DNA of 47,127 nucleotides, from assembly GCA_023645945.1 (NCBI GenBank), contig JALAIB010000023.1, positions 1-47,127 on the forward strand. The letters run 5' to 3'. How positions within the stretch are numbered: position 1 is the first letter of the stretch; every line of letters begins with the position of its first letter. Positions 40,455-44,912 of this stretch are shown here, piece by piece. The DNA is from Diploschistes diacapsis (lineage: Eukaryota). The notes beneath the pieces were generated by a model. The model was not told where the DNA came from. It saw nothing but the letters and a program-made list of their open reading frames with translations, and searched no databases. The translations under genes were made by a program, and so were the position numbers.

Positions 40455-40635
40455 GGCAAGCTTTAATTCACATATATGGTCGGGTCGGGTCTGGGCACTT
40501 ACCGCAAGCAACGGGTCGCGAAAAGAACCCCAACCTCCCAACCCCCAGTACGGCAAAAAGAAGAAGAAGAAGAAGAAGAAGAAGAAGAAGAAGAAGAAGA
40601 AGAAGAAGAAGAAGAAGAAGAAGAAGAAGAAGAAG
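40455..40635 (+). mobile_element. Short retroposed insert (SINE or 5'-truncated LINE 3' end) with (AAG)n tail
   Basis: About 100 bp of unique sequence followed by (AAG)26. Flanked by the direct repeat AGAAGAAGAAGCT at 40442-40454 and 40625-40637. Confidence 0.55.
40558..40635. repeat. (AAG)26 perfect microsatellite
   Basis: 26 uninterrupted AAG units counted. Confidence 0.97.
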
Positions 40636-41391
40636 CTCATCCGTCAAACTGCGCAGCCCTGGAGGCCTGAATGAAGCACACCTCCTGGAAAAGGCCCAGT
40701 AGGTCGTGGCTAATCGAGCAGTGAGCGACCAGCCATACTTATTGCAACAGCATCGCGCTTTCCAGACCATGGGAAAATGCTTGCTTAAACTGCAGCTGCT
40801 ATCCCATCCATGTCACCAGAGTAACGGGGGTGCCAATGCGCCATGTCAGTCGTTGGGGGCCTTCGCGGCGCTCTGGCCTGGACAACATCATTCAGCAAAA
40901 AACAGCTTTTATATCAGCCCCCCTCCCCCGGTTTCTGCTAGCAAGTAAAAAATACAGGAGAAGCATAACAATATAAATGGGTCTGATCCGAGCCTTAGAG
41001 CCTCACTATGATAATAATAACCGTGTAATCTAATCTACACTCTGTATATAACCTGGCTGGTAAGCCTGGCTGGGCTCTTTTGACGAGACGAGTGCAATTG
41101 TCCGAGCGTGCTACTCCTCTACAGATGAATACCTACGATTTCCACCTTTGGTATTATTATGGGCTCACAAGTTGACGTACAGTAAATACCAATCCACGTG
41201 ATAATTAAACTAAACGACATAGAACTTTAAACGTTATACAAGGAAACTGTTATATAGAGAAATTATTACAGAACTTGTCTCTCAAATGTCGTAGTTTCCC
41301 CATAAATAAAATCTCGCCCGTGACAATTCCTCTGTTCAAGAGTTGGATAACTCCACAACAGCATAATCACACAGCGAGACCAGAGTCGCCG

Positions 41392-41877
41392 CTATTCATT
41401 CCTCGAGCTTGGAATCCAAAGGTCCAGACCTTGAATAATTCCAGCGCCTGCAAAGCTCCCCCCTCTAGCAGAAGTATCCGAAATGTTTTGCTTGACGTTC
41501 CGAACTTCTCCAGGAGTATTAATGAGTCCAGCCACAGCTCTACTGTTGTTGTCTGCTTTGGTATTATTGATTTCCTGCTCGATCCCATCATGAACATTCT
41601 TGGTTTTTAAGAGCGCTTCCTCGCAAGTTTTTCGAAAGACTTCGTTGGAGGCCTTCTGTTCCTGCATCTCCTCGAGCAGCTGTTCCAGATTCCGCTTCGA
41701 CTCTTCGTTGACCTCATCCCGAATACTAACTGAGAGCTGTTTGAGGGAGCTCTCTATTGCAGCTAACTCGCGATTTGCTCGAGCTTTCTCTTCATCAAGG
41801 CGTAATTCATTGTTCTTTCCGATGGCAACGGTAGTGATGCCTACCACCGAAGCAGTAATACTGAGTGGGTCGGTCAT
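41392..41877 (-). CDS. HeLo-like-family effector with two C-terminal amyloid-motif pseudo-repeats, 161 aa; apparently internally deleted
   Basis: The N-terminus MTDPLSITASVVGITTVAI is typical of fungal HeLo-like/STAND N-terminal domains, followed by a coiled-coil middle. Repeats QEINNTKADNNSRAVAG (aa101-117) and QNISDTSARGGSFAGAG (aa130-146), then LDLW. Confidence 0.75.
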   Translation of the reverse strand: MTDPLSITASVVGITTVAIGKNNELRLDEEKARANRELAAIESSLKQLSVSIRDEVNEESKRNLEQLLEEMQEQKASNEVFRKTCEEALLKTKNVHDGIEQEINNTKADNNSRAVAGLINTPGEVRNVKQNISDTSARGGSFAGAGIIQGLDLWIPSSRNE

Positions 41878-42193
41878 TTTCGAACTGGATTTTCTGAGCG
41901 GAAAATATATGCAGACGAAGACCTAGGCTGTCGGTGGACGTTGACCATTTTTGAATGCGTAGGCAATCGGTAGCCTTATACTACAAGAGGGCGGGGGGGA
42001 CTCAGCCACCGCCTCCGGCCCAGCTTGAGCTTGCGACATGCCTCGCAAGGAGGTGCAGATATCCAGCGGTTGCCTTGACTTCATAGCGAAAGCATCCCGA
42101 GTCGCATTACGAAGAGATTCACGCTGAAGGAATGAATTCTTCATAATCGCGAACTCGACAGATATAGCAGCGGCACTAGCAAGACAAGGACCA

Positions 42194-44912
42194 ATGTCGA
42201 GCGCTCCGCTACTCGACCAGCACATCAGCGGCACGTCCGCGACCGACGGCAGCATCGCACTTGCAGGTGACTTTCCAAATCTAACAAATGTGACTATTGG
42301 TACTCGCGAATGTTAATATACTAAACTCGTGTGTAGTCTTCAGAGGCTTATGACTGAATTTATATCTAGCATACCGCCCTCCGAAAGCCTCCTTCATAGG
42401 CCCCTTCCAGCGCGATACCCACTTTGTCGACCGCGGCGACCTCCTCTCACGAATCGACAAATTATGCTCACAACCAGCAGGTCGCGCAGCATTTGTTGGT
42501 CTGGGAGGCGTGGGGAAGTCCCGACTCGCCATCGAATATGCCTACCGCGTCCGAGAGCGGTCACCGGACACATGGGTGTTCTGGGTGCACGCAAGCAACG
42601 CAGCCCGTTTTGGGCAGAGCTATGGTGACATTGCAGACGCGGTCAAGATTCCGTGGCAGGAGAATCCGGAGGAAGACATGTTCAAACAGGTACACGACTG
42701 GCTACGCGGGCATCAGGGAAAGTGGCTGATTGTTCTCGACAACGTCGATGATGCCCGATACCTCCTGAAGGCTAAACCCAAGCGCCAGAGTCAAATCGCT
42801 GGACCAGATAACGGAGCTTCCAGATCGCTTTGGGAATGCATTCCAAAGAGCCCGAATGGTTCCCTTTTAATCACATCGCGGAGTAAAGAGGCAGCACTGG
42901 AGCTTGTCAAAGTAAACGAGACTATACCCGTCGAACCAATGAGCGAGGCACAGGCAACAGAGCTGTGTAAGAAGAAGCTGGGTTCGGAGGTGCCGCAGAT
43001 CGACGAAGATATCGCGAAGCTCGTGGTAGTACTTGAATTTATGCCACTGGCCATTGTTCAAGCAGCAGCGTATATCTTACAACTAGCACCGCTATGCTCG
43101 GTACGGGAATATACTCAGAAGTTTCAGAAGAGCGATCGGTCGAAGGCAAAACTGTTGGATTCCGATGGTGGCTATTTCCACAGCGACGGCGAGGTTAAGA
43201 AACCAATCTTAAGAACCTGGCAAATACCGTTCGAACACATCCTTCAAGCGAGGCCTTCTGCGGCAAACCTTTTATCTCTCATGAGTTTCTTTGATTCACA
43301 AGGAATTCCCGAGGCGTTGGTTCGAAATCGATCGCGAACAAATAAAGCCCGAGGCAACACCATCGACAAAGAATGTGATGAAGACAGCGATGACGAAAGT
43401 AGCGCGAGCGGCTCTGAGGACGATGAATTCAAAGTAGACATATCGACGCTGAGGAACTACTCGTTCGTATCAATCAGCAAAGACATTAGCGTCTTTGAAA
43501 TGCACAAGCTGGTCCAGCTGGCGACGCGAAAGTGGCTCGAAGCAAACAAGCAGCTTGAGGTATGGAAGCAGCAATACATCAAAATCCTCTACGAAGAATT
43601 CCCGACCGCGGAATACCAAAACTGGGCGAAATGCCAAAATCTTTTCGCGCACACACAGACGGTAGTCGCGCAACGACCTCAGAAAGAAGAATCACTTCTA
43701 CAGTGGGCTTCAATACTCTCTAAAGGAGGAGAGTATGCCTGGTATTTAGGCCACAGGAGCATTGCGGAGGAGATGGGGGTCAAGGCAATGAAGGCTAGGA
43801 AGAAACTGCTGGGGCAAGAGGAAAGAGAGACGCTGAGGAGCATGAGTCAAGTAGGACAGTTATATAATATAACAGGCCGACTGAAGGAAGCGGAAGAGCT
43901 GGAGGTGCAAGCCCTAGAGATCTCTCAGAGGGTGTTTAGTCAAGAAGATCCAGACACGCTGATCAGCATGGCCAGATTGGCTTGGATATATAGGAATCAG
44001 GGACGCTGAGAGAAGGCTGAAGAGCTGGAGATGCGGGTAATAGAAATAAGGAAAAGGACGTTAGACGAAGAACATCCTGATATGCTGAATAGCATGACTA
44101 ATCTAGCCGCGACATACTGGAATCAAGGACGTTGGAAGGAAGCGGAAGAGCTAGAAGTGCGGGCAATGGAGATAAGAAAGAGGGTGCGAGGTAAAGAGCA
44201 TCCTGATACGTTGATCAGCATAAACAATCTAGCTTCGATGTATTGGGAACAAGGGCGCTGGAAAGAAGCGGAAGAGCTACAAGTACAAGTAATGGAAATA
44301 ATGATAAAGGTGCAGGGCAAAGAGCAACCGGAAACGCTGACCAGCATAAATAATCTAGCCATAACATATAGGAGTCAAGGGCGCTGGAAAGAAGCAGACG
44401 AGCTATTAATGCAAGCAATGGAGATAATGAAGAAGGTGCTGGGCAAAGAACATCCTTATACGCTGACCAGCATGGCTAATCTGGCTTCGACATATAGGAA
44501 TCAGGGACGTTGGAAAGAAACGGAAGAGCTAGAAATACAAACGATGGAGATAAGAAAGAAGGTATTAGGCAAAGAGCATCCCGATACACTGACTAGTATA
44601 AACAATCTAGCTTGCACATACCGGATTCAAGGACGCTGGAAAGAAGCAGAAGAGCTATTAATACAAGCAATGGAAATAATGAAGAAGGTGCTGGGCAAAA
44701 AACATCCCCAAACGCTGAACAGCATGGTCAATTTTGCTTTCCTCTTGAAAGACCAAGGCGGAGCTACAGAAGCCATCTCATTGATAGAGAGATGCTTTCA
44801 GCTGCAGAAACAGGTCCTTGGTCCAGGGCATCACGCCACGGAGGCTTCGCTTAAAGCTCTACGTGAGTGGGAAGGCAAGGGAAAAGAACCTGATCAAAAA
44901 CTTTCTAGTTAG
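42194..44912 (+). pseudogene. Fungal NLR: N-terminal amyloid motif + NB-ARC + about 9 TPR repeats; join(42194..42299,42370..44912) with one in-frame TGA at 44007-44009
   Basis: Exon 1 MSSAPLLDQHISGTSATDGSIALAGDF.., then a 70-nt GT-AG intron. NB-ARC motifs: PFQRDTHFVDR, P-loop GLGGVGKS, WVFWVHAS, Walker B WLIVLDNVDD, LLITSR, FMPLAIVQAAAY, MHKLVQ. TPR units are 42 aa. The ORFs ending at 44009 and starting at 44031 share one frame. Confidence 0.9.
43749..44872 (+). repeat. 126-nt tandem array encoding TPR repeats (GRWKEAEEL...GKEHPDTLTS..NLA..Y..Q)
   Basis: Unit starts at 43749, 43875, 44001 and onward with exact 126-nt spacing. Confidence 0.9.

Follow-up and report, generated by a model that had tools for sequence, protein, structure and literature searches.

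Do the two divergent genes between positions 41392 and 44912 of a 47,127-bp contig of Diploschistes diacapsis (GenBank assembly GCA_023645945.1, contig JALAIB010000023.1, positions 1 to 47,127 of the forward strand; this whole stretch is referred to below as the window) encode an amyloid-signalling cell-death module, and could such a module still work? An earlier note made from the sequence had proposed one, in which a NOD-like receptor (NLR) is paired with a HeLo-like effector through a shared amyloid motif in the register of HET-s. We consider it likely that the locus is an amyloid-signalling pair of a lichen ascomycete, formed by a HeLo-like effector of the HRAM2 motif subfamily and an NLR of the NB-ARC/TPR (tetratricopeptide repeat) type, and that it has recently been disabled by two lesions. 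On the effector side, 143 codons and an intron appear to have been lost in one 495-bp in-frame deletion; on the NLR side, a TGG codon appears to have become a TGA stop after ~1.5 of ~8 TPR units. The three amyloid repeats themselves, two at the C-terminus of the effector (r1 and r2) and one near the N-terminus of the NLR (r0), are intact despite both lesions. What stands of the earlier proposal is the divergent NLR/effector pair with its HET-s-register motif; what does not is an intact module, the effector domain being mostly deleted and the NLR being cut by a stop.

The layout that had been described was found again, with an open reading frame (ORF) encoding 161 residues at 41392..41877 on the minus strand (its product is referred to as P0001), an ATG at 42194 on the plus strand that starts a 40-codon ORF, and 316 bp between the NLR and effector ATGs. 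The strict pattern Q.I..T.A...S.A.AG, which the three repeats had been said to share, had three matches when the whole window was translated in six frames, at 42218-42268 on the plus strand (R0) and at 41527-41577 (R1) and 41440-41490 (R2) on the minus strand, and nowhere else; 30 shuffles gave 0 matches. A re-count of identities among these 17-mers gave the same 11/17 for R0 and R2 as had been reported, and 8/17 for R0 and R1, relative to 7/17 for the best unrelated 17-mer in the window and a best of 7 (23 shuffles) or 8 (7 shuffles) among the 30 shuffles. Profiles of r1 and r2 were then built from 33 distant relatives, leaving out P0098 (70% identical to the query), and scored on all 1,437 six-frame segments of the window. 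With the r1 profile, R1 scored 27.4 bits (E 2e-07), R2 –0.8 bits and R0 19.7 bits (E 5.4e-05), compared to 6.5 bits (E 0.84) for the best unrelated segment; with the r2 profile, R1 scored 19.7 bits, R2 26.5 bits (E 3.2e-07) and R0 24.8 bits (E 1.1e-06), compared to 8.6 bits (E 0.15). Since the profiles were never trained on the close sub-branch of relatives, the detection of r0 on the NLR is independent of it.

To which class of motif do these repeats belong? HRAMs are described as 21-residue repeats (Daskalov, Dyrka & Saupe 2015, Sci Rep 5:12494, PMC4518210), and the portion of that paper available to us gives as their rules Gly at position 19, hydrophobic residues at positions 5, 8, 10, 16 and 18, and an inter-repeat loop of 6-18 residues. 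Subfamilies are marked there at the ladder residue, position 3, by Asn (HRAM1), Gln (HRAM2) or His (HRAM3), and further by Gln18 (HRAM4) or Gln16 (HRAM5). The register of the present repeats fits this 21-residue numbering and also a 17-position numbering, and the mapping of core, ladder and arc glycine onto HET-s in the earlier note agrees with the published scheme. In P0001, r1 spans aa 99-119 and r2 aa 128-148 with a loop of 8 residues between them, and r0 comprises residues 7-27 of the divergent NB-ARC/TPR gene; r0, r1 and r2 all carry Gln3, Ile5, Ala10, Ala16, Ala18 and Gly19. Because of the Gln at position 3 and the 8-residue loop, taken with the published rules, the motif is assigned to the described HRAM2 subfamily, of which the 2015 dataset already holds a pair from Cladonia grayi, and is by these features not a new HRAM-like variant. 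The 29-residue repeat spacing that had been offered as a distinguishing feature is the usual HRAM2 geometry, the 8-residue loop being kept in 75/76 close relatives and in 27/34 distant ones. The marks of HRAM4 and HRAM5 are absent, with Ala at positions 16 and 18 in r0, r1 and r2, and direct reading of the three repeats found no PP core pattern (G-hydrophobic-Q-hydrophobic-G). Profile scoring, which had been suggested as a check, thus gave a positive answer for HRAM2 with our own r1 and r2 profiles and a negative one for HRAM1 and sigma: neither Pfam PF11558 (HET-s, HRAM1) nor PF17046 (sigma) matched P0001 or NLR exon 1 at E<=10, in searches where the HMMER filters discard most weak matches. 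PF11558 itself is reported to match only 38/155 HRAM proteins of the published set (PMC4518210). The Trp that follows r2, and that had been likened to the aromatic tail of HET-s, is a private substitution found in 1/76 relatives, 72/76 having Ser there.

When P0001 was compared by phmmer with 1.84 billion representatives, 80 matches were obtained at E<=0.001, and the search reached HeLo-like proteins of ~300 aa with the same C-termini (P0103, 4.7e-18; P0133, 4.5e-08). Among the supplement rows of PMC4518210 available to us, which were compared by eye and with repeat identities counted by hand, the C-terminus of P0133 is close to that of Nectria haematococca Necha2_97213, and P0103 resembles rows from Cladonia and Aaosphaeria.

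The effector of the window is a shortened one. In the related metagenome loci L001 and L002, the gene has an upstream 144-codon exon (MTEPLSITASVVGITTAAIGSVKFLY...), which a 66-nt intron separates from the exon that the ORFs of the relatives represent. Exon 1 of these loci matches PF17111 (formerly Helo_like_N, now PigL_N) at 2.4e-21 and 3.3e-20, and SesA at ~1e-06. Annotated full-length proteins of 303-313 aa are found in Xylographa soralifera, Lecanora helva and Lepraria neglecta, and in the 303-aa protein of Lecanora helva (P0092) PF17111 extends over residues 2-209 (6.9e-23). Relative to these, blastn across the junction aligned L001 position 5504 with window position 41819 and L001 position 6001 with window position 41817, so that codon 20 of the window is joined straight to the codon for Lys164 of P0092 and residues 21-163 of P0092 are missing. 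The frame is kept because the 495 bp that were lost amount to 143 codons plus the intron. No HeLo, HeLo-like or SesA domain was detected in P0001 by Pfam at E<=10, since 143 of ~208 domain residues have been deleted; as the window copy stands, then, the neighbour of the NLR is not the HeLo-like effector it had been called, and PF17111 is seen in its relatives only. The effector sub-branch of close relatives comprises 88 clusters at 90% identity, and the deletion junction of the window occurs in 0/88 of them. The start MKEVKDSML... of these relatives (n=88, of which 32 were aligned) is a start set by the ORF caller and has no counterpart in the window.

Predicted structures give the same outline of the loss. 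In the AlphaFold2 (AF2) model of P0092 (predicted local distance difference test score, pLDDT, 79.4), the deleted part corresponds to most of helix 1, helices 2-4 and the start of helix 5. The AF2 model of P0001 retains helices over residues 15-54 and 58-95 as one hairpin with pLDDT >90, and its N-terminal 20 residues are unplaced (pLDDT 33-36). In the models of both P0092 and P0001, strands are predicted over r1 and r2, a prediction that is no measure of amyloid formation. With the P0092 model as query, Foldseek found nothing in the PDB at E<=0.001, and VIA-align gave generic long-helix hairpins only (best Z 12.5, a value common for helical models), with no HeLo or MLKL chain listed, a result with which a fold of this kind is still possible.

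The NLR gene required an exon upstream of its main frame. A stop closely precedes this frame (RGL*LNLYLAYRPP...), and the frame contains no Met ahead of the P-loop, whose Walker A string is GLGGVGKS; an upstream exon is therefore needed for the NB-ARC frame, as the earlier note had held when it placed R0 in a first exon at 42218-42268. Three donors, at 42267, 42300 and 42312, each of phase 1, can be spliced to the one acceptor at 42369|42370. The GT at 42312 is kept in 5/5 copies (window, L001, L002, L004 and L005) as GTTAAT, GTTAGT or GTGAGC, and the relatives have an in-frame 9-bp indel between the motif and 42312, which fits coding sequence; for these two reasons the 42312 donor is preferred, and the intron is probably the 58 nt of 42312..42369. 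The intron 42300..42369 that had been proposed is disfavoured, its GT being kept in 1/5 copies where the relatives read GC or AC. Donor 42267, which is used in the NCBI model, changes Gly19 of r0 to Ala, and donors 42300 and 42312 keep the Gly. In P0167 (71% identical), r0 reads into the NB-ARC domain within a single ORF.

Downstream of the NB-ARC domain and a winged-helix domain (DUF7779), a TPR array with a 126-bp period (5.9 copies) is interrupted. Six neighbouring TPR units read GRWKEAEELE, compared to GR*EKAEELE in the unit with the stop. The frame that had been drawn through to 44912 is thus broken at 44007-44009: ~1.5 of ~8 TPR units are still attached, and 300 codons (44010-44912) are cut off. 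The NCBI model of the gene (P0166, 570 aa, 'MAG: hypothetical protein LQ340_000374 [Diploschistes diacapsis]') ends at this same stop. A position of the TGA inside an intron was considered and rejected, as it replaces the Trp codon of the TPR consensus and the NCBI model ends there. As a separate observation, two NB-ARC/TPR relatives of the window NLR, P0172 and P0175 (55% and 52% identical), have N-termini with ...GLQVG... and ...GFQAG..., like the PP pattern, and the same receptor scaffold seems, from these N-termini, to carry differing types of amyloid motif. The features of the locus are collected in Table 1.

Table 1. Features of the effector/NLR locus, in window coordinates
Feature	Position	Strand	Basis or remark
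Effector ORF (P0001), 161 aa	41392..41877	-	= residues 1-20 + 164-303 of the full-length protein, P0092 numbering
r2, second 21-residue HRAM2 repeat, VKQNISDTSARGGSFAGAGII	41434..41496	-	r2 profile 26.5 bits, E 3.2e-07
Inter-repeat loop, 8 residues, NTPGEVRN	41497..41520	-	Loop length kept in relatives
r1, first 21-residue HRAM2 repeat, IEQEINNTKADNNSRAVAGLI	41521..41583	-	r1 profile 27.4 bits, E 2e-07
Codons 21-98, retained C-terminal helical hairpin of HeLo-like domain	41584..41817	-	Matches P0092 residues 164-239
Junction of 495-bp in-frame deletion (143 codons + 66-nt intron)	41817..41819	-	Alignment columns 403-897; blastn
Codons 1-20, MTDPLSITASVVGITTVAIG, start of HeLo-like N-terminal helix	41818..41877	-	Same in L001/L002 exon 1, P0091-P0094
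Intergenic region shared by both ATGs, 316 bp	41878..42193	.	Conserved in L001 and L002
NLR exon 1, preferred end	42194..42311	+	Alternative phase-1 donors 42267 (NCBI model P0166) and 42300 (earlier note)
r0, single HRAM2 repeat of NLR, LDQHISGTSATDGSIALAGDF	42212..42274	+	r2 profile 24.8 bits, E 1.1e-06; r1 profile 19.7 bits
Predicted 58-nt phase-1 intron, GTTAAT...CTAG	42312..42369	+	GT kept in 5/5 copies; frame requires an intron
NLR exon 2 to premature stop: Walker A 42498-42521, NB-ARC, DUF7779 ~43248-43547, first TPR_10/12 from ~43830	42370..44006	+	Pfam
In-frame TGA where TPR consensus and relatives have TGG (Trp)	44007..44009	+	GR*EKAEELE vs GRWKEAEELE
Cut-off TPR remainder: 7 TPR_10/TPR_12 stretches, 126-bp period, and C-terminus	44010..44912	+	Original stop 44910-44912

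Compared to the window, related loci display the same arrangement in several states of preservation. L001, L002 and L005 retain the head-to-head layout with r0, and the intergenic DNA of these three aligns closely with that of the window (82% mean column identity over the whole alignment); this recurrence supports the pairing proposed in the earlier note. Open NLR frames of 813 codons in L001 and 950 codons in L002 accompany intact effectors in both. L005 has lost the NLR start codon and contains many stops; of the 144 changes that separate it from L002, 132 are C>T or G>A. L004 has ATA as its start codon and, between its two genes, ~4 kb of additional sequence with only one frame >=100 codons; it differs from L002 by 162 changes, of which 104 are C>T or G>A and lie mostly in a CpA/TpG context. 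The changes in L004 and L005 look like repeat-induced point mutation, and their contexts differ: CC>TC and GG>GA account for 65/132 in L005 (4000-6750), and CA>TA and TG>TA for 66/104 in L004 (1310-5340). L003 and L006 are fragments. The seven copies compared therefore comprise two intact pairs (L001, L002), two hypermutated ones (L004, L005), two fragments (L003, L006) and the window with its two lesions. Judged by these sequences, the HRAM2 module occurs widely and in multiple copies among lecanoromycete lichen fungi, and the HRAM2 family shows a pattern of rapid birth and death.

Some rearranged relatives of the effector were also observed. An effector fragment at L003:1349-1864 immediately follows the 3' end of a TPR-NLR that has the same orientation, and the homology of the fragment starts within 1-2 nt of the window deletion end at 41817 (AAGA[GA]CAATGAATTACGCC); the fragment is degenerate (for example, Gly19 of r2 is Glu) and shares one breakpoint with the rearrangement of the window. 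P0089, of 99 aa, is a second, independent in-frame deletion form, in which residues 1-40 (the N-terminal helix to ...DVPTALG) are joined to r1, with r2 and the tail intact. P0088, a single ORF of 154 aa, runs from the effector hairpin through the first 16 residues of r1 into the N-terminus of an NB-ARC protein (…PSSTVPFRRDPDFVDR…GLGGVG); it has no Pfam match, and looks like either a fused all-in-one receptor or a chimera of the two divergent genes, for which recombination between r0 and r1 is a candidate origin. P0132, a distant relative of 1089 aa, combines a HeLo-like domain with r1 and the beginning of r2, after which ~800 residues lack any Pfam match, and the motif is therefore internal rather than C-terminal in this protein.

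How would an undamaged pair work? By analogy with HET-S/NWD2 and HELLF/FNT1, the TPR array would sense a cue, and oligomerisation of the NB-ARC domain would gather the N-terminal r0 motifs. These motifs would take a β-solenoid-type amyloid fold and template the C-terminal r1/r2 region of the effector, upon which the HeLo-like domain would expose its N-terminal helix and attack membranes, and the cell would die. The window copy is probably defunct as a death module, because its predicted helix bundle is gone and its putative sensor array is cut off.

Whether the two lesions exist in a genome at all was addressed with public metagenome contigs (runs X1-X4) aligned to the locus. Neither lesion occurs in run X2, which over the locus is mostly 95-99% identical to the window: its contigs diverge from the window at 41817 on both sides, the undeleted sequence reading ...SVKFLYATIG and MMKEVKDSML, and position 44009 is G in X2, X3 and X4, compared to A in the window. 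Run X1, a lichen metagenome that is a possible source of the window and hence not an independent sample, reproduced both lesions with 0 differences in a separate assembly. Here, one contig of 3,348 bp (depth 75.5) spans 41300-43955 including the junction, and a second contig spans 43926-44950 including the TGA, each with 0 differences. By these alignments both lesions are recent and private to the window copy. The explanation that deletion and stop are errors of metagenome assembly, and that the real genome has an intact pair, draws on the window being a metagenome-assembled genome and on the repetitive TPR array, at which X1 contigs break (43926-43955) and where one X1 contig joins 43970 to 44553. 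Set against it are the junction and the TGA recovered without a difference in the separate X1 assembly, in which no contig is undeleted; because the window may itself have been assembled from the X1 reads, assembler error is thereby excluded, and artefacts of the library are not. We regard this explanation as highly improbable. The X1 contig with the unusual joint (depth 60) has 78 other letters between 43970 and 44553, and may come from a variant with another number of TPR repeats or from a paralogue within that sample.

If the lesions are real, the 161-aa protein could instead be a functional short allele, either a minimal killer or a non-killing prion or decoy of the het-s kind, that is seeded by the truncated NLR in a working module. 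In favour of this, reading frame, start codon, residues 1-20 and both repeats have survived the deletion, r0 and the NB-ARC domain are intact, P0089 provides the second in-frame deletion, and L003 breaks at the same nucleotides as the window. Opposed to this are the loss of most of the HeLo-like residues and with them of the Pfam domain, the unplaced N-terminal 20 residues in the model, the presence of both lesions in one sample only when the closely similar X2 lacks either, and the plain decay of the sister loci L003-L006. In addition, ORF callers give open frames only, so that out-of-frame deletions go unseen and sightings of in-frame ones are biased. A working short allele is in our judgement unlikely, and still less probable is the proposal that mini-effector alleles consisting of an N-terminal helix stub and the HRAM2 region (the 161 aa of the window, the 99 aa of P0089) are selected functional forms in lichen fungi. 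Were that so, mini-effectors could be prion-competent, non-killing alleles of the het-s kind or decoys that soak up NLR seeding, and the NLR with its truncated sensor could be a constitutive seed for them. A chance or compositional likeness of the repeats, without any amyloid role, is close to refuted and hardly credible: the pattern occurs three times in the window and in no shuffle, no columns of the C-terminal region are better conserved in 33 aligned sequences than its positions, R0 on the other gene is recovered by profiles built from distant relatives, and the arrangement recurs in other loci and in the published set, where 98/155 effectors have an adjacent NLR with r0 (PMC4518210). On its side are that no experiment on HRAM2 was found in the literature available to us, and a complex prediction for r0 (35 aa) with the r1-r2 region (aa 96-161), whose scores of 0.14 and 0.12, compared to a mark of 0.34, say nothing either way.

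The preferred reading, that of a recently disabled HRAM2 pair, has to accommodate several points that weigh against it. Position 8 is Thr in all three repeats rather than Val or Ile, and the accessible text of PMC4518210 mentions Thr at position 10 only; among the distant relatives, P0097, P0129 and P0140 are examples of proteins in which r1 and r2 likewise have Thr there. At position 15, r1 has Arg, r2 Phe and r0 Ile, so that the residue is basic in r1 only, Arg or Lys at this position being given there as a preference and not a rule. r0 is nearer to r2 than to r1, opposite to the HRAM2 trend in the same portion of that paper. No public RNA runs with the locus are listed, so that splicing and expression of the pair are predicted only. 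In the parts of the HRAM2 literature available to us, no experiment on amyloid formation, templating or killing was found. Both lesions are known from one sample only, and with an in-frame deletion, all repeats intact and a second in-frame form in P0089, residual or altered function is possible.

Among known systems, the nearest published row is that of Cladonia grayi Clagr3_10818 and its NLR, as far as the available supplement of PMC4518210 extends. Table 1 of that paper lists one HRAM2 and one HRAM5 for Cladonia grayi, and Clagr3_10818 is taken as the HRAM2 entry by elimination, because the other Cladonia row has Gln at 16 (the supplement seen has no class column). Its C-terminus aligns with that of the window from the CEEAL helix end before r1 through r1, loop and r2, and the r0 of its NLR aligns as well, with hand-counted repeat identities of 10/21, 10/21 and 11/21. 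Shared are Gln3, Ile5, Ala10/16/18, Gly19, the 8-residue loop, a single r0 on the neighbouring NLR and a lichen-forming lecanoromycete host. The window differs from Clagr3_10818 in 'LDL' in place of 'DF' after r2, in a HeLo-like domain that is mostly deleted and in a truncated NLR, and from HRAM2 pairs including this one in Thr, not Val/Ile, at position 8 and in r0 being nearer r2.

The closest experimentally studied system that combines a HeLo-like domain with HRAMs is HELLF/FNT1 of Podospora anserina (bioRxiv 10.1101/2020.07.06.188508). As described in the portion of that preprint available to us, HELLF has a HELL domain and two HRAM pseudo-repeats and adjoins an NLR gene with the motif in its first ~35 residues; its prion-forming region acts as a prion, and the full protein kills. 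HELLF/FNT1 is of HRAM5 (QxFG and Gln16), in contrast to the window copy, which is HRAM2, damaged and known from sequence alone. In HET-S/NWD2 of Podospora anserina, the paradigm for HRAM1, one NLR repeat templates the two-repeat C-terminal prion-forming domain (PMC4518210, portion available). The present locus shares with it the adjacent genes and the register of core, arc and ladder, and differs in that HET-S has a HeLo and not a HeLo-like domain and Asn at position 3, and that PF11558 has no match in the window proteins. NWD2 is an NLR of the NACHT/WD type, and the repeat spacing of HET-s was given as 36 in the earlier note compared to 29 here.

The surroundings of the pair are unremarkable. 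Its neighbours in the window encode a GH47 protein, two class II tRNA synthetases, an MFS transporter, BCS1 and an alcohol dehydrogenase, and because the rest of the window consists of such ordinary genes, the pair sits in a normal chromosomal context. The 316-bp region between the two start codons presumably serves as a bidirectional promoter. A perfect (AAG)n microsatellite of ~26 units lies at 40558-40635, ~750 bp downstream of the effector stop codon.

To the known picture of fungal amyloid signalling the locus adds little, because the motif subfamily, the gene arrangement and a lichen example were all published in 2015. Off the published pattern, as far as these sequences indicate, are only Thr8 in all repeats, r0 being nearer r2, and the recurrent in-frame deletion forms. 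Fast turnover by birth and death, as seen in this family, is what one would expect for genes of immunity or allorecognition, and lesions of the type found in the window are dated natural knock-outs, which could be used to ask what role the module has in a symbiotic fungus.

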